A DNA stretch of 8,820 bases, from the IMG/VR virus record IMGVR_UViG_2778261688_000006; one strand, written 5' to 3'. The number at the start of each line of letters is the position of its first letter. The stretch's first letter is position 1. The position numbers and the translations under genes were made by a program. Shown here in pieces: positions 534-8,820 of this stretch. The DNA is from a virus (taxonomy: Duplodnaviria > Heunggongvirae > Uroviricota > Caudoviricetes). The notes under the pieces were generated by a model that made no database searches, was not told the DNA's origin, and saw only the letters and a program-made list of their open reading frames with translations.

Positions 534-661
534 AACCCCACCTCGCAGACAAAGCGGGTGTAAATTGAGGGAATACAACGTATCGCAAAAAAGCAGAAAC
601 GTAACAGACTCGGAGTCAGTGAATAACTCAGGTATTGGGTTATCAGCTAATATCGAGACTC

Positions 662-694
662 AAAAAATGGAAAAACCCGCTCGACGGCGGGTTT
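662..694 (-). terminator. Candidate intrinsic terminator oriented on the minus strand, about 130 nt upstream of the pinholin start
   Basis: 8-bp GC-rich stem AAACCCGC (673-680) / GCGGGTTT (687-694) with loop TCGACG; on the minus strand the stem is followed by TTCCATTTTTT (reverse complement of 662-672). The plus-strand tail is weaker (TTTAAG). Confidence 0.45.
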
Positions 695-1038
695 AAGCTG
701 TGTGACGAAGTAACCACTCTTAACAGCATAACCAATTTTTTACGTACGTAAACCACTAAATGATATTTGCGAGAATGCTACCGAGTATTGAAAACACCAC
801 TACAAATACATAAGCAAATCTCAACAAATAACCAACAAATAATTTCCAGCGTTATTTTTAGCTGGTTTAAATTGAATCTTCAAATTATAGAGCACTTATA
901 AATAACAGCCATTAATATAAATTGGCTAATAGATTTATTTTTATTCAGCCAAGAGCCATGAATAGGATTCGATAGAAAAAGTTCAGATAAAAATAGAGAT
1001 CTACTTCACAAATCAAATGAGAAACCAAAACTTACATC

Positions 1039-1067
1039 TTGAAATAATCACATTGATTAGATGAATA
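1039..1067 (+). promoter_or_regulatory. Candidate sigma70 promoter for the porin gene (weak)
   Basis: TTGAAA (1039-1044), 17-nt spacer, TGAATA (1062-1067), about 55 nt upstream of the porin ATG in an AT-rich region. Picked by eye only. Confidence 0.2.
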
Positions 1068-1120
1068 TTTATCGCGCAGTGACATCATTTTTTAATAATA
1101 GTTCAAAAAAAGGGCTCACG

Positions 1121-2203
1121 ATGAAAAAATTAACAGTGGCAATTTCTGCTGTAGCTGCATCAGTACTGATGGCGATGTCTGCTCAGGCAGCTGAAATTTA
1201 TAATAAAGACAGTAACAAGCTGGATCTGTACGGGAAAGTTAATGCTAAGCACTACTTCTCCTCTAATGATGCAGATGATGGTGATACTACTTATGCCCGT
1301 CTTGGCTTCAAAGGTGAAACCCAAATCAACGATCAACTGACTGGTTTCGGTCAGTGGGAATATGAATTCAAAGGCAACCGCGCTGAATCTCAAGGTTCCT
1401 CCAAAGATAAAACCCGTCTTGCCTTCGCTGGCCTGAAATTCGGTGACTACGGCTCCATCGATTATGGCCGTAACTACGGTGTAGCATACGATATTGGTGC
1501 ATGGACCGACGTTCTGCCAGAATTCGGTGGCGATACCTGGACCCAAACAGATGTATTCATGACTGGTCGCACCACAGGTGTTGCAACTTATCGTAACAAT
1601 GACTTCTTTGGTCTGGTTGATGGTCTGAACTTTGCTGCTCAGTATCAGGGTAAAAATGACCGCACTGACGTAACTGAAGCTAATGGTGATGGTTTCGGTT
1701 TCTCCACTACTTATGAGTATGAAGGATTCGGTGTAGGTGCAACCTATGCTAAATCTGACCGCACTAATAATCAGGTTATCTACGGTAACAACAGCCTGAA
1801 TGCATCTGGTCAAAATGCTGAAGTATGGGCAGCTGGTCTGAAATATGATGCGAACAACATCTATCTGGCCACCACCTATTCTGAAACCCAGAACATGACT
1901 GTTTTTGGTAATAACCATATTGCCAACAAAGCACAAAACTTCGAAGCTGTTGCACAATATCAGTTCGACTTCGGCCTGCGTCCATCCGTTGCTTACCTGC
2001 ATTCTAAAGGAAAAGACTTGGGTGTTTGGGGTGATCAGGACCTGGTTGAATATGTTGATGTAGGTGCAACCTATTACTTCAACAAAAATATGTCCACTTT
2101 TGTTGACTACAAAATCAACCTGATTGATAAGAGCGATTTCACGAAAGCATCTGGCGTTGCTACCGATGATATCGTTGCTGTAGGTATGGTTTACCAGTTC
2201 TAA
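1121..2203 (+). CDS. nmpC: OmpC/OmpF-family general porin (NmpC / Lc / OmpD-like), 360-aa precursor; prophage-encoded lysogenic-conversion moron
   Basis: ORF track 1061..2203; true start taken as ATG 1121 ([23 protein letters not shown]|AEIYNKD signal peptide with AQA-A cleavage site). Has the porin hallmarks of aromatic/Gly-rich beta-strands and a C-terminal ...VGMVYQF ending in Phe. It sits between Q and the lysis genes on the opposite strand, as nmpC does in DLP12 and lc in PA-2. Confidence 0.93.
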
Positions 2204-2227
2204 TTTGATTACTAAAAGATATGTTGT

Positions 2228-2298
2228 GGGAGGCTTTGCCTCCCCAACATATAAGTGGCTCCCTCAAGCCACTTCCTTTAGAAGCACAACCTTGCTTC
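2228..2298. repeat. Cluster of three short GC-rich hairpins between the porin stop and the Q stop
   Basis: GGGAGGC-TTT-GCCTCCC (2228-2244); AAGTGGCT-CCCTCA-AGCCACTT (2253-2274); GAAGCA-CAACCT-TGCTTC (2281-2298). None has a clean U-tract; possibly a structured leader RNA or terminator-like elements. Confidence 0.3.
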
Positions 2299-2340
2299 TA
2301 ACTATATAAACCTTCTGTTATATATTACCCTTTATTTTTG

Positions 2341-2366
2341 GGGGCGTTTCAACGCCCCATTTTTAA
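2341..2366 (+). terminator. Candidate rho-independent terminator for the porin transcript
   Basis: GGGGCG-TTTCAA-CGCCCC stem-loop (2341-2358) followed by ATTTTTAATAACTTTT on the plus strand; the minus-strand side is A-rich, so it is unidirectional. Confidence 0.5.
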
Positions 2367-2391
2367 TAACTTTTAGTAAATAATTGGCGTA

Positions 2392-2775
2392 TTAATTAGA
2401 GTTATTAACAACGATATCCATCTCTAACCGGATATCTAATGCCATTAACATCCCTTCAATTATGCCCTCAGCCTTTTGTAACCTTTTCCCGATATAACCA
2501 TCAGAGCAGCAATGCTTACCTGCCAGTGACATGAATGTCATACCGACTATATAATAATCTACTAATAAATCGTGCAAATCGCTGTTGTTCTTTTTCAGAC
2601 GGGCCATGCACCCGCAAATGATCATCGCGTCATCGTCACAACATTGCGGGCGAGATTTTACTTTTGAAGGAATTAATCCCTTAAAACCGGCGGCAATGGA
2701 CGACCAGGTCACATCTTCATGATTATTAGCCGCCCACGCTCCCCAACGCTCAAGAACCATCTGAATATCACGCAT
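2392..2775 (-). CDS. quuD: Late-gene antitermination protein Q (DLP12 QuuD-like / phage 21-82 type), 127 aa
   Basis: ORF track 2392..2790 starts at a TTG; I chose ATG at 2775 ([22 protein letters not shown]...), which is preceded by GGAG. Cys-rich region [16 protein letters not shown]...KHCCSDGY fits the Q-family zinc-binding fold. Gene order Q - porin - S - R matches DLP12. Confidence 0.88.
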
Positions 2776-2860
2776 CAACTTACTCCACAAAAATCAGACC
2801 AAAACGCCAATTACAAGCAAAAATCAACAAAACAGTATTAGTTGATTGTTATCTCTGACT

Positions 2861-2998
2861 TCATACTCCTGCTCCTGTCAGGGTTTTGGCGTAACTCTTC
2901 AGTATTCGGTAATCGGTCAAAACAGAACCGGGGAAACGATATAAGCGCAGGCGCACCCAGCGGCGGCGAAGACGTTCTGCCATATAAGACTCAAACAT
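2861..2998 (-). CDS. ylcG: Small basic ORF between rusA and Q (YlcG-like position), about 45 aa
   Basis: Frame [45 protein letters not shown]; its ATG overlaps the rusA stop (TGATG), suggesting translational coupling. An alternative start is ATG 2983 (40 aa). Too short for the ORF track; identity is from position and size only. Confidence 0.4.
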   Translation of the reverse strand: MFESYMAERLRRRWVRLRLYRFPGSVLTDYRILKSYAKTLTGAGV

Positions 2999-3360
2999 CA
3001 TTCATCTCCCAGTTCAGTGATGGTCAGTTCCAGCCTCCCACCTTTGGTAACAGGCATCTTCACAACGCGGTAATCAACGACCTGAGCATCATCCAGCCAG
3101 AAACCTGCTTTGGTGAGTGCGTCAAAAGCGGCCTTTTGCAGATTATCCAGGTCACGGCGACGGCGATCCGGCATGTGGCACTCAATGCGGATTTTCACAG
3201 GCATAGCCAGGCCGATATCCAGCATTGCGTTTTTAATGATTCGGGCGACGTTATCGCGGTATGCCTGCCCCTCTGCGCTGATGTGCGTGCGCCCGCGATT
3301 ATGGCGGTAATAGCGATTATTGCTCGGAGGCCAGGGTAATGTGATGCTGTAGGTATTCAC
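2998..3360 (-). CDS. rusA: Holliday-junction resolvase RusA, 120 aa
   Basis: [26 protein letters not shown]...[10 protein letters not shown]...[11 protein letters not shown] is recognisably RusA. The first codon is GTG (reverse complement of 3358-3360), preceded by a GAGGGGGG Shine-Dalgarno. Confidence 0.93.
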
Positions 3361-3380
3361 GCCTTAATAACCCCCCTCTT

Positions 3381-3575
3381 TCAGCCAGATAACCTGTGTT
3401 CTCGCCATACCTTCCAGCGCGCATTCTTTTGCATATGCAGCATCGACTTGCTTGGCATGCCCTTTACCGGCAATCTTCTGTATGCGCTAAACCTAGATAG
3501 AATCCACTCTGTGCACATTGAAGCCCGCTCTATGCTTCCTTTCAGGTATTGAAGGGATTGAGATGGGCTAAGCAT
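3381..3575 (-). CDS. Small nin-region ORF with a NinF-like N-terminus; possibly a frameshifted or chimeric pseudogene
   Basis: ORF track 64 aa, [19 protein letters not shown]...; the first ~19 residues resemble lambda NinF (from memory) but the expected CxxC...CxxC zinc ribbon is absent. An alternative frame over 3364-3486 encodes ...[27 protein letters not shown] with no start codon, ending 3 nt before rusA. Confidence 0.3.
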
Positions 3576-3915
3576 TATTGGCCTCCTGCATCAGGAGAAA
3601 GACAATCATGGCGGCGCGGAGAGGTCTGGTATCAAATATTGGGCTTACGCCTTTTGCATCCACACACCATTCAGTTAACTGGTCTAAGATAGAAATCCTG
3701 TATTTCTCAATAATCGGCCATGAAGCGCTCGGATCATTGCAGTAGTCAGGCAAATGATTTAATGGCTCAAAAGTTGTATCAGCATTTCCGTAATACCATT
3801 TGTTGGTGTTATTCCCTGATGTTTCCGGTTTACTTGCCCAAAGGCCTTTAAAAATTATGTCTCCTACCATTCTGTTAATTTCAAAATCACTTAACTGTGA
3901 ATAATCCATTGTCAT
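3568..3915 (-). CDS. Hypothetical nin-region protein, 115 aa, function unknown
   Basis: ORF track 3568..3951; I chose ATG at 3915 ([24 protein letters not shown]...) because it overlaps the ninE stop as ATGA, implying coupling. No motif I can assign. Confidence 0.55.
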
Positions 3916-4088
3916 TTCCTCGCACGATATCTTAGCCACCGGATATCCCACAGGTGAGCCGTGTAATTGAAGGTTTTTACGTCAGATTCTTTTGGGATTG
4001 GCTTGCGTTTATTTCTGGAGCGTTTCGTTGGAAGGTATTTGCAGTTTTCGCAGATGATGTCGGTGATACTTCGTCGCTGTCGTCTCAT
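3912..4088 (-). CDS. ninE: NinE-like protein, 58 aa
   Basis: [58 protein letters not shown] sits inside ORF-track 3912..4178; ATG 4088 is preceded by AGGAGG and overlaps the methyltransferase stop (ATGA). Confidence 0.8.
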
Positions 4089-4612
4089 TCGTACCTCCTG
4101 ACGCCCTGCCCGATCGCCATCAATGCCGCTTTGGATACAGTAGTAAACATCCGTCGAGGACTGATGAACGGTCGCCAAATCAGCAGCATGGAGCCTTTGC
4201 TGTTTCCCTTCTTCTCCAGCCCCGTCGATGGTTCGATAAAATTAATCCGTCCATCAGTGATAATGCGAACTTCGTCGACACTCTCCAGAGCCTTGCTGAA
4301 CCATCCGACTGACATATCCTCTGGCACAAGCATCACTACCGTCTGTCGCTGTTGTATGCACTGCTCAGCGGCTTTTTCCACCCACGGCCTGATATTGCTG
4401 TACGGTGGGTTATTCCAGATTGCACCGTGGCTTACCCACTCAGAATTGAGCGCGTCGTCGGCCTCAGTTAGCCAGTGAGCACACAGAGCATTTTTGTCGC
4501 TCGCTGCCGAATCCAGCCAGAATCCAAACTCAATATCCAGTGCATCAAAAAGCCAAAGCGGCGTTTGCCAGCAGTCCTTGTCGTGTGCTGGCGTATTTGA
4601 TTTGATAGTCAT
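4085..4612 (-). CDS. Phage Dam-like DNA N6-adenine methyltransferase (orphan, no adjacent restriction enzyme), about 175 aa
   Basis: ORF track 4085..4672; likely start ATG 4612 ([38 protein letters not shown]...), which overlaps the ninB-fragment stop (ATGA). Contains the amino-methyltransferase catalytic motif NPPY ([11 protein letters not shown]). An alternative start is ATG 4630. Confidence 0.82.
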
Positions 4613-4731
4613 GCAGCCCGATCTCCCCATCTCGCTTTCCACTCCAGAGCCAGTCTCGCTTCGTCTGACCACTTAACGCCACGCTCTGTACCGAATGCCT
4701 GTATAAGCTCTAATAGCTCCGCAAATTCGCC
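4609..4731 (-). pseudogene. ninB: NinB 3' fragment (C-terminal ~40 codons only); 5' end removed at the junction
   Basis: Minus-strand frame ends ...[40 protein letters not shown], which I recognise as the lambda NinB C-terminus. Upstream of 4731 the same frame runs antisense through N with no NinB-like sequence, so the ORF-track 4609..4863 ORF is an artefact. Confidence 0.75.
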
Positions 4732-4957
4732 TAACCGCCCTATTCTCTCGCTGAATCGCAAACCGAAATCACGAGTAGAAAGCGCACTAAATCCGATAGA
4801 CCTTACAGTGCTGGCTGAATACCACAAACAGATTGAAAGCAACCTGCAACGTATTGAGCGCAAGAATCAGCGCACATGGTACAGCAAGCCTGGCGAACGC
4901 GGCATAACATGCAGTGGACGCCAGAAAATTAAGGGAAAATCGATTCCTCTTACCTAG
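4732..4957 (+). pseudogene. N: Antiterminator N, 3' fragment (about codons 34-107); no start codon, arginine-rich boxB-binding N-terminus missing
   Basis: Plus frame 4733..4957 translates NRPILSLNRKPKSRVESALNPIDLTVLAEYHKQIESNLQRIERKNQRTWYSKPGERGITCSGRQKIKGKSIPLT* (lambda N C-terminal part). Upstream in-frame sequence back to the TGA at 4598 has no ATG/GTG/TTG and no N-like residues. Confidence 0.85.
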
Positions 4958-6504: not shown

Positions 6505-6530
6505 CGTTATGTATAAATAAGGAGCACACC

Positions 6531-6695
6531 ATGCAATATGCCATTGCAGGGTGGCCTGTTGCTGGCTGCCCTTCCGAATCTTTACTTGAACGAATCACCC
6601 GTAAATTACGTGACGGATGGAAACGCCTTATCGACATACTTAATCAGCCAGGAGTCCCAAAAAATGGATCAAACAATTATGGCTATCCAGACTAA
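6531..6695 (+). CDS. cIII: CIII, FtsH/HflB protease inhibitor stabilising CII, 54 aa
   Basis: Hand translation from ATG 6531: [54 protein letters not shown]; AAGGAG Shine-Dalgarno upstream. Too short for the ORF track. Confidence 0.9.
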   Translation: MQYAIAGWPVAGCPSESLLERITRKLRDGWKRLIDILNQPGVPKNGSNNYGYPD

Positions 6696-8647: not shown

Positions 8648-8820
8648 AGCATCCTCACGATAATATCCGGGTAGGTGCGATCACTTTCGTCTACTCCGTT
8701 ACAAAGCGAGGCTGGGTATTTCCCGGCCTTTCTGTTATCCAAAATCCACTGAAAGCCCAGCGGCTGGCTGAGGAGATAAATAATAAACGAGGGGCTGTAC
8801 CGGAACCAGATTGGCGATAA
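8638..8820 (+). CDS. Lambda orf60a-like protein, 60 aa
   Basis: ORF track 8638..8820, [50 protein letters not shown]...; overlaps the exo 3' end, as orf60a does in lambda. Confidence 0.75.

Follow-up and report, generated by a model that had tools for sequence, protein, structure and literature searches.

The nmpC/Lc porin gene is a long-known cargo of lambda-like E. coli prophages, in which it lies between the late-gene activator Q and the lysis genes. This placement raises the question of where Q-dependent late transcription begins, and of whether it has to cross an antisense porin gene to reach the lysis genes. The question was investigated in a stretch of 8,820 nucleotides from a virus of the Caudoviricetes (IMG/VR record IMGVR_UViG_2778261688_000006), referred to here as the window, on which an earlier note had been written. 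With considerable confidence, we read the locus as a DLP12/PA-2-type lambdoid late-control region in which the nmpC/lc porin cargo splits Q from its own target promoter, with a predicted transcription start at ~718.

Gene Content and Relatives of the Locus

The region (Table 1) was matched at 100% by an E. coli chromosome that carries the annotation rrrD-essD-porin-quuD. Of 5,426 complete E. coli genomes, 2,337 had the same gene layout, which was also present in many isolated phages. In the phage collection, 36 records had one matching place at a query coverage of at least 80%, with PA-2 (J02580, 84% coverage) and 434B among the matches listed. The porin lies between Q and S and is antisense to both, and synteny agreed in the 100%-identical genome, K-12, and PA-2. 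The order R-S, antisense porin, Q is shared with PA-2 lc (J02580) and with nmpC of K-12, which belongs to the cryptic prophage DLP12 (qsr').

Table 1. Features of the late-control region, in window coordinates.
Feature	Positions	Strand	Remarks
rrrD/R21-type lysozyme, endolysin 5' part	1–318	−	gene cut by window edge; Pfam Phage_lysozyme 4.7e-20; annotated rrrD in the 100%-identical genome
essD, S21-type pinholin	318–533	−	Pfam Phage_holin_2_1 2e-35; annotation of relatives; start codons ATG 533 and ATG 524
Late-operon leader (essD 5'UTR), predicted	534–718	−	inferred start A718, via alignment to the mapped Sakai Sp5 PR'
Leader hairpin 694–673 and U-run 672–662, candidate tR'	662–694	−	about +25 to +57
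Conserved block TAAGAGTGGTTAC	710–722	−	covers predicted start site and first transcribed bases
Candidate late promoter pR'	725–752	−	−35 TTTACG 752–747, −10 TATGCT 730–725
Palindrome TTTACGTACGTAAA, putative Q-binding element	752–739	−	part of candidate pR'
Porin regulatory region with PnmpC, AT-rich	761–1120	+	29% G+C; ~98% identity with the DNA upstream of K-12 nmpC
Porin gene (nmpC/lc allele, 360 aa)	1121–2203	+	signal peptide 1121–1189
Porin mRNA 3'UTR, ipeX RNA region	2204–2366	+	ends in intrinsic terminator 2341–2366
quuD, Q antiterminator, 127 aa	2392–2775	−	Pfam PF06530 1.1e-53

The Q protein of the window was 78% identical to the Q of Stx phages and distantly matched the Q21 structures 6P18/6JNX (E = 1e-7 over residues 8–87, ~35 bits). 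An initial assumption that it belonged to the phage 82 family was dropped, the Q21 structures being its sole solved relatives. The relationship to the Q21 antitermination system is distant and significant, and the logic is the same, in that Q is loaded close to the late promoter. In the alignment, DNA homology with the Q gene of Sp5 stopped near codon 120, and the last ~7 codons of quuD (2392–2415) extend past the end of the homology with Stx-phage Q.

The Porin as a Self-Contained Cargo Unit

The porin open reading frame spans 1061–2203, with the real start codon at ATG 1121, as annotated for PA-2 lc and, in RefSeq, for the 100%-identical genome. Its product matched Pfam Porin_1 (PF00267, E = 1e-152), residues 29–360 falling on profile positions 1–337 of 337, and its best solved relatives in the PDB comparison were OmpK37, OmpC, and PhoE (~1e-134 to 1e-136). 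Alignment with the sig_peptide feature of PA-2 indicated a signal peptide of 23 residues cleaved before AEIYNK, and the translation shows the PEFGG loop-3 motif and a terminal YQF, which ends in the C-terminal aromatic residue. The earlier note had described an intact, signal-peptide-bearing OmpC-family porin on the plus strand between Q and S-R, and this was confirmed. It had also described the gene as uninterrupted; there was no break in the reading frame, and the window copy lacks the IS5 of K-12 nmpC. The protein was 91% identical to PA-2 Lc, with differences grouped at residues 181–235 and 262–266, and its length of 360 aa compares with 365 aa for Lc. The upstream region, the 3'UTR, and the late leader were 97–100% identical to those of K-12 and PA-2.

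Promoter activity for this gene is known from a close homologue. The region upstream of the porin aligned at ~98% identity with that of K-12 nmpC, where the sigma-70 promoter PnmpC was mapped by 5'RACE within −199 to −1 of the ATG and is CRP-activated (PMC11677980). A CRP-like site at 992–1012 is annotated in PA-2, and its counterpart in the alignment with P7 is a perfect CRP site. A −35-like TTGAAA lies at 1039–1044, and the predicted porin transcript likely starts near 1074–1076. A consensus promoter scan of the window missed both the porin promoter and the late promoter, and a weight-matrix scan of the AT-rich region returned many weak candidates without singling out PnmpC.

The AT-richness was only in part as proposed. 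The earlier note had treated 580–1060 as an AT-rich spacer typical of H-NS-targeted cargo. The description holds for 761–1120 (29% G+C) and fails for 580–760, since G+C there is 41–44% (534–662, 44%; 663–760, 41%), near that of the neighbouring genes (43–48%). The segment 580–760 is therefore the late-operon promoter and leader, not a porin-associated spacer. Within the porin unit, low G+C was confined to the control region; the coding region, at 44%, was similar to its neighbours. In NCM3722, in which the K-12 nmpC allele is intact, NmpC accounts for ~2% of the proteome, and carbon limitation induces it (PMC8144880). By analogy, such high expression would argue against complete H-NS silencing.

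At the other end of the unit, the plus-oriented terminator proposed to follow the porin was found as a stem at 2341–2358 with seven pairs (six G-C), followed by ATTTTTAA up to 2366. On the other strand, CAAAAATAAAGGG comes after the stem, and because it contains no U-run, the hairpin is expected to terminate transcription in one direction only. The scan returned 16 terminator-like sites where shuffled sequences gave 8.0 ± 3.2, and the 2341–2366 and 694–662 hairpins ranked among the four sites with the most G-C pairs (6 and 5, respectively). With the terminator found and the promoter assigned by near-identity to K-12, the proposal that the porin is a self-contained cargo unit (moron), antisense to Q and the lysis genes, was upheld.

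The 3'UTR between the porin stop codon and this terminator was ~98% identical to that of K-12 nmpC and near-identical to that of PA-2 lc, with nearly all alignment columns invariant. It was predicted to fold at −61.5 kcal/mol (z = −8.3). Comparison with P7 revealed one compensatory change in hairpin 2, and hairpin 1 has a few substitutions relative to the IpeX of K-12 and PA-2. The ipeX RNA, the 3'UTR RNA of nmpC/lc, is 167 nt long and reported to lower OmpC/OmpF synthesis, according to PMC12197685 and PMC5069750; the location of the window segment and its size of 163 nt fit that RNA. This regulatory 3'UTR was missing from the earlier note. A search of all Rfam families at E values up to 1 gave no match in 580–2391, ipeX and the late leader being without a curated family. 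The sole Rfam match in the window was the lambda cIII thermoregulator, at 6518–6576.

A Probable Late Promoter on the Lysis-Gene Side of the Porin

On the minus strand, 752–662 showed homology with both the late promoter and the leader in Stx phages, and 671–753 matched the DNA directly after their Q. Upstream of the late promoter, homology with Sp5 broke just before the −35. The candidate pR' is homologous to TTTACG-N16-TATCAT of Sakai Sp5, for which the PR' start site was mapped by dRNA-seq, with an RNase E site at +173 and a 3' end at +258 (PMC7547250). These published coordinates, shifted by +142, fit the sequence: the start falls 7 nt after TATCAT, the RNase E site on a GT|ATT, and the 3' end where the U-run of a hairpin finishes. 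The candidate was missed by the consensus scan, which picked up its Sp5 homologue. The −10 fits TAnnnT in most of the leader variants inspected. Alignments showed that promoter, start region, and hairpin are conserved in K-12 DLP12, PA-2, SfII, and Sakai Sp5. The block TAAGAGTGGTTAC has one exact copy in the window and is conserved independently in K-12, PA-2, SfII, and Sp5. From the alignment to Sp5, late transcripts probably start near 718. A literature search gave no usable start-site data for the DNA ahead of K-12 essD.

Within the window, homology to a late promoter of this Q family was confined to 752–718 (minus strand), a segment flanked by the porin and S. The late promoter is therefore most likely located to the lysis-gene side of the porin. 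It and the porin promoter would be divergent, back to back and ~360 bp apart, and Q-dependent transcription would not need to cross the porin gene. The earlier note had concluded the opposite, namely that it must read antisense through the porin; with the family-type promoter found only at 752–718, that conclusion was not upheld. It presupposed a late promoter directly after Q, as in lambda, with transcription running across ipeX, the porin, the spacer, and the hairpin. Such a promoter would have precedent, as lambda and those Stx phages whose Q belongs to this family have pR' next to the end of Q or overlapping it, and terminator 2341–2366 would be no block to minus-strand transcription arriving from Q. 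There are also weak minus-strand hexamers after Q, at 2352–2322 (TTGAAA-N19-TAATAT or N17-GGTAAT); however, these are poorly spaced and sit within the terminator hairpin. The minus strand of 2391–2204 yielded no homologous promoter, no second copy of TAAGAGTGGTTAC, and only weak consensus matches: nothing there resembled a late promoter of this Q family, and the DNA is the conserved ipeX 3'UTR. The palindrome specific to the Q clade, the start block, and the hairpin are all found within 752–662.

The leader hairpin has a stem of eight pairs (five G-C) at 694–673 that encloses a 6-nt loop, and after it TTCCATTTTTT extends to 662. The minus-oriented, terminator-like hairpin with a U-run that had been placed between porin and pinholin was thus recovered by the scan. 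It lies in the leader downstream of the predicted start, in keeping with the proposal that Q-modified polymerase must pass it before S and R. A second terminator, equivalent to the Stx-phage tR' at +258, was sought by scan and alignment, and none was found between 662 and the start of S. A C.U mismatch is present in the stem of PA-2 and of 29 of 76 related contigs; with it, the 58-nt leader is predicted to fold less stably (−8.4 instead of −13.9 kcal/mol). Two alleles of the hairpin, GCGGG and GCTGG, occur. The homologous hairpin of Sp5 (+24 to +52) lets some transcription through, as leader RNA was mapped to the second terminator at +258 (PMC7547250).

Compared with Stx phages (933W, Sakai Sp5), the window has a homologous promoter, start block, and first hairpin. 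In those phages, the promoter overlaps the end of Q, whereas 1.65 kb of porin cargo lies between the two in the window. The window also lacks the +60 to +258 segment (StxS and the second terminator), as well as the tRNA and stx genes; in the alignment, no homology to StxS was seen past about +60 of the window leader.

Co-Variation of the Palindrome with Q Clade

We surveyed 119 phage contigs retrieved with a leader pattern of which TAAGAGTGGTTAC was the fixed part, so that this block is present in them by construction. A PF06530-type Q was found in 97 of these, always upstream and on the same strand. The gap from Q to the promoter cassette was −16 nt, 12–26 nt, or 0.6–2.4 kb of mostly antisense cargo. 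Among QuuD-type contigs, the cassette lay 1,668–1,687 nt after Q in 76 of 80, and in one more, interrupted by IS1, it lay at 2,446 nt. A full-length antisense porin reading frame (360/365 aa, or 380/385 aa if counted from the upstream ATG) was present in 75 of the 76 cassette contigs, the other having a frame of 344 aa. A terminator-like hairpin at about +25 to +46 was predicted in 54 of 60 unique leaders, against 7% of shuffles, and was sometimes unrelated in sequence.

The palindrome at about −37 to −24 varied with the Q clade and not with the gap length; the Stx-type palindrome is TTTACGATCGTAAA. The same Q clades occurred with the cassette 12–26 nt from Q and 0.6–2.4 kb away, which also speaks against a promoter fixed directly behind Q in the window, and we consider that arrangement very improbable. 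Because it co-varies with the Q clade, we infer that the palindrome is a putative Q target.

The co-variation bears on another reading of 752–662, in which this segment chiefly serves as an independent gene for a small RNA comparable to lambda 6S RNA or StxS. Its promoter would be constitutive, with a terminator soon after it, and the lysis genes would depend for the most part on another promoter, for example a sigma-E-dependent one. Stx-phage PR' does yield the regulatory RNA StxS in lysogeny (PMC7547250), and PMC7918800 cites RpoE control of the DLP12 lysis cassette. However, the StxS part of Sp5 (+174 to +258) has no counterpart in the window, and the palindrome's co-variation with Q clade suggests a Q target; the same paper also reports, by citation, that the DLP12 lysis operon is controlled by its own Q. 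A chiefly small-RNA role is thus unlikely in our judgment, and such a role could coexist with that of a Q target.

Proposed Course of Transcription

In the arrangement that we favour, rightward transcription of the porin unit (~760–2415) would begin at a CRP-activated sigma-70 promoter of its own, located within the ~200 bp that precede ATG 1121. The transcript would encode the porin precursor and carry the structured 163-nt 3'UTR (ipeX region), and transcription would stop at the one-directional terminator 2341–2366, 25 nt before the converging Q gene. The late operon would be read leftward from the candidate promoter at 752–725, its transcript meeting the hairpin and U-run at +25 to +57 (694–662), where most polymerases should halt without Q. 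Q, expressed from 2392–2775, would bind the palindrome at 752–739, load near the start, and carry polymerase past the hairpin into essD-rrrD-rz.

A further source of antisense transcription was considered alongside this scheme. In lambda, pR transcripts read through past Q. Lytic, N-antiterminated pR transcripts might likewise pass Q here and run antisense over the porin, damping porin and ipeX expression and adding to late expression. The scan found no minus-strand terminator between Q and 694, and hairpin 2341–2358 has no U-run on the minus strand, both of which would leave the way clear. Against it, untranslated antisense RNA is a typical target of Rho termination, and in the window itself the route cannot work, as pR, pL, and part of N are deleted. 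We regard this additional route as possible but doubtful.

A Possible Cargo Slot between Q and the Late Promoter

Like the lambdoid morons bor, lom, and stx, the porin unit has its own promoter and terminator and an AT-rich control region, and it is inserted between elements that are adjacent in relatives. Its flanks, Q and the late-promoter cassette, overlap there (−16) or lie 12–26 nt apart. The stx cargo is located downstream of pR'/tR' and co-transcribed with the late genes, whereas the porin cargo is upstream of pR', antisense, and Q-independent. For phages with a PF06530-type Q, we lean toward the view that the junction between Q and promoter is a recurrent cargo slot and that the palindrome at ~−37 to −24 is the Q-binding element. 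Unrelated units of 0.6–2.4 kb, mostly antisense and AT-rich, appear to have been inserted there repeatedly without disturbing late control. Among these units are the nmpC/lc porin, candidate anti-phage systems, and two-gene modules of unknown function.

Implications for Prophage Biology

The porin cargo is textbook material for the way in which a phage alters the outer membrane of its host while dormant, with NmpC/Lc replacing OmpC. With the cargo placed upstream of the late promoter and divergent from it, porin expression would be uncoupled from prophage induction and late control left intact. In contrast, Shiga toxin genes follow a promoter of this kind on its downstream side, and phage induction switches them on as well. 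The wider survey of contigs suggests that the Q-to-promoter junction is a place to seek more prophage cargo, including candidate defence genes. The palindrome is, moreover, a candidate Q-binding element for the Q family that controls Shiga toxin expression, hence its medical relevance.

Gene Content and Identity of the Locus

Over its left 2.9 kb, the window was 100% identical to a prophage in the E. coli isolate AJ1 (NZ_OZ547217.1), for which RefSeq gives the labels rrrD, essD, porin, quuD, and ylcG, and profile searches of the window concurred. Both lines of evidence confirmed the earlier note's observation of an intact porin lying between Q (quuD) and the S-R lysis genes (essD and rrrD), antisense to both. 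The solved structures nearest to the porin were OmpK37, OmpC, and PhoE, while the sole solved relative of Q was the distant Q21 (E = 1e-7). The R-S-porin-Q layout was present at ≥80% query coverage in 2,337 of 5,426 complete E. coli genomes, and 36 records in the phage collection had a single matching place covering ≥80% of the query. Among the phage matches listed were PA-2 (J02580, 84% coverage), whose record annotates the gene as lc together with a signal peptide and CRP sites, and 434B, whose allele is K-12 nmpC::IS5. The window porin was 91% identical to Lc, with the differences clustered at residues 181–235 and 262–266. The cryptic K-12 prophage DLP12 carries quuD, nmpC (split by IS5), essD, and rrrD in relative orientations matching those of the window. 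The porin locus is the well-known nmpC/lc locus; the interpretation first put on it needs substantive correction on one point, where the late promoter lies, and lacks one element, ipeX.

Features of the locus in window coordinates, with strand and basis of assignment
Feature	Position	Strand	Basis or remark
Phage lysozyme	1–318	−	Profile search
S21-type pinholin	318–533	−	Profile search
Leader hairpin	694–673	−	Alignments
Conserved start block TAAGAGTGGTTAC	722–710	−	Alignments
Candidate late promoter TTTACG-N16-TATGCT	752–725	−	Alignments
Palindrome	752–739	−	Overlaps −35 region
General porin, full-length	1121–2203	+	Porin_1, E = 1e-152
Q antiterminator, Pfam PF06530	2392–2775	−	Profile search

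Probable Position of the Late Promoter

The claim that Q-dependent transcription must cross the porin gene failed, as the late-promoter homology lies between the porin and S. A sensitive DNA search with 534–1125 matched 671–753 to the DNA directly 3′ of Q in Shiga-toxin phages. The promoter, start block, and leader hairpin (together, the cassette) were identical in DLP12, nearly so in PA-2, and still recognizable in Shigella phage SfII as well as in Sp5, the Stx2a prophage of strain Sakai. The window Q shares 78% identity with that of Stx phages and should therefore use a similar kind of site. The start block occurs in a single copy in the window, and a scan of the minus strand 3′ of Q for promoters returned no credible one. 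Homology of the Q-gene DNA to Sp5 ends at codon ~120 (window ~2416) and picks up again just 5′ of the −35 (~755–760), so that the porin unit of ~1.65 kb replaces 60 bp of Sp5, which code for the C-terminal end of Q and run into the promoter.

According to Sy et al. (PMC7547250), the start of the Sp5 late promoter was mapped by dRNA-seq, and its leader is cleaved by RNase E at +173 and has its 3′ end at +258. The coordinates in that report fit the current RefSeq record after a shift of +142, which places the start 7 nt past TATCAT, the cut between GT and ATT, and the 3′ end on the final T of the T-run that follows a hairpin. Since these three independent landmarks agree, the coordinate transfer is safe. 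By homology with Sp5, we infer that the late start in the window is A718.

Terminators and Base Composition

The two terminators named in the earlier note were real and ranked among the best of the window in a terminator scan. The first is a plus-strand hairpin at 2341–2358 followed by a T-run; the opposite strand has no T-run, making it one-directional. The second is the minus-strand leader hairpin, whose T-run reaches 662. The pair does bracket the porin, as proposed, but the left terminator belongs to the late leader. The AT-richness attributed to 580–1060 held from 761 onward (29% G+C in 761–1120) but not for 580–760 (41–44% G+C).

Porin Promoter and the ipeX Region

The 375 bp 5′ of the porin start codon were ~98% identical to K-12, where nmpC has a sigma-70 promoter ≤199 bp from the ATG, mapped by 5′RACE and described as activated by CRP and repressed by OmpR, IHF, and MprA (PMC11677980). 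In NCM3722, a K-12 strain with intact nmpC, NmpC makes up ~2% of the proteome and increases when carbon is limiting; the OmpC level is lower than that of MG1655 by a factor of more than ten (PMC8144880). With the promoter mapped and the protein measured on near-identical K-12 DNA, the expression checks proposed earlier have already been done there.

The 163 nt from the porin stop codon to the end of the terminator (2204–2366) were almost identical to the 3′UTRs of K-12 nmpC and PA-2 lc. This is the ipeX region, a feature that had been overlooked. Published accounts describe ipeX as a 167-nt RNA that is part of the porin transcript and reportedly lowers OmpC and OmpF synthesis (PMC12197685, PMC5069750, PMC3333887). 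Its predicted fold comprises four hairpins and the terminator (−61.5 kcal/mol, z = −8.3), an arrangement shared by the nmpC 3′UTR of phage P7, where hairpin 2 shows a single compensatory change. The P1-like phages P7, JL22, and phi456 carry an nmpC homologue ~75% identical. In P7, 1201–2511 matched window 1059–2333, a match spanning the promoter-proximal 60 bp and the ipeX-like 3′UTR, and a perfect CRP site (TGTGATTTTGATCACA) aligned with the weaker site of the window at 992–1012. The porin and its 3′UTR thus seem to be transferred as one unit.

Palindrome and Leader Hairpin across Relatives

Across 19 Q clusters, the palindrome at about −37 to −24 tracked Q clade, not gap length: TTTACGTACGTAAA in the window's clade, TTTACGATCGTAAA in Stx phages, AACGCGTACGCAAA in the SfII type, and GCGGTCCGC, TGGAATTCCA, and TTCGTTACGAA in further clades. 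Such co-variation is as expected of a Q-binding element, for which the palindrome is a candidate. In most leader variants inspected, the −10 fitted TAnnnT at a constant distance from the start block.

Of 60 distinct leaders, 54 had a terminator-like hairpin near +25 to +46, compared to 7% of shuffled controls, and several of these hairpins were unrelated in sequence. The hairpin of the window's type has two common alleles, GCGGG with a perfect stem and GCTGG with a mid-stem C·U mismatch. The predicted fold of the 58-nt leader was −8.4 kcal/mol for GCTGG versus −13.9 kcal/mol for GCGGG. Of 76 contigs, 29 had GCTGG, as did PA-2; no instance of it came from a phage lacking the porin. The Sp5 counterpart (869–897 of that locus, +24 to +52 of the PR′ transcript) looks like a canonical terminator, with a hairpin and a U7 run, and is apparently not discussed in the StxS-leader paper (PMC7547250). 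This homologous hairpin clearly lets part of transcription pass, because the mapped leader RNA reaches +258.

Proposed Transcription of the Locus

The porin unit would be transcribed rightward from its own promoter and stop at 2366, 25 nt short of the converging Q, which would thereby be shielded from antisense transcription. The late promoter, divergent from the porin and ~360 bp left of its start, would fire at ~718, and the polymerase would run into the hairpin and U-run at +25 to +57. Once made, Q would bind the palindrome, load on the polymerase close to the start site, and take it onward into essD-rrrD-rz. The lysis operon of DLP12 has been reported to be under Q control (as cited in PMC7918800). 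Late transcription most likely proceeds without passage through the porin. In an intact phage, pR transcripts through Q could enter the porin unit antisense, as the minus strand has no intrinsic terminator there.

Cargo between Q and the Late Promoter

Two surveys of IMG/VR contigs were carried out. In the first, 80 contigs with a Q ≥98% identical to that of the window were searched for the cassette, which lay 1,668–1,687 nt past Q in 76 and was found nowhere in three. Antisense porin ORFs of full length were present in 75 of the 76, with 360 or 365 aa (380 or 385 aa if an upstream ATG is taken as the start), and the porin-slot ORF of the other was 344 aa. One further contig had the cassette 2,446 nt from Q, with an insert between the −35 and −10 of the late promoter whose end, …GTAAGTTGGCAGCATCACC, we take to be the terminus of IS1. 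An IS1 at this position would cut the lysis genes off from Q.

The second survey comprised 119 contigs retrieved with the conserved start block as the pattern. A PF06530-type Q was detectable in 97, always 5′ of the cassette and on the same strand. The Q-to-cassette distance was −16 nt (an overlap) in the Stx type and 12–26 nt in other contigs, the remainder having 0.6–2.4 kb of inserted DNA, mostly antisense ORFs of 31–45% G+C. Some inserted ORFs matched the candidate anti-phage families PDC-S20, PDC-M68A, and PDC-S42. The cargo included a KAP-type NTPase (PADLOC PDC-S20), an HNH protein (PDC-M68A), the PDC-S42 match, an esterase-like protein, and several two-gene modules including a membrane protein. 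In SfII (2772–4386 of its locus), where Q is shortened to 103 aa, the slot between Q and the cassette holds a pair of antisense ORFs (340 and 194 aa) with no known function. Cargo between Q and the promoter as a general pattern and the clade-specific palindrome are the sole parts of this analysis that may go beyond published work.

State of the Prophage

The window matched the AJ1 prophage save for two differences. One is an exact 3,708-bp deletion at 4731–4733 with a 2-nt (TA) microhomology, which joins a truncated ninB to a truncated N lacking its 5′ part and takes out ren, P, cII, the cro-like and cI-like genes, pL, and pR. Its junction was absent from all complete E. coli genomes in the collection. 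The other is a breakpoint at 8799/8800, 21 nt short of the window's right edge. At 6518–6576 on the plus strand, where cIII begins, the window matched the lambda cIII thermoregulator RNA element over its full length (Rfam RF01804, 88.5 bits, E = 4e-21). If the window represents an actual genome, Q would be without its normal promoter and the phage would neither replicate nor be inducible; the porin unit, with its own promoter, would be unaffected.
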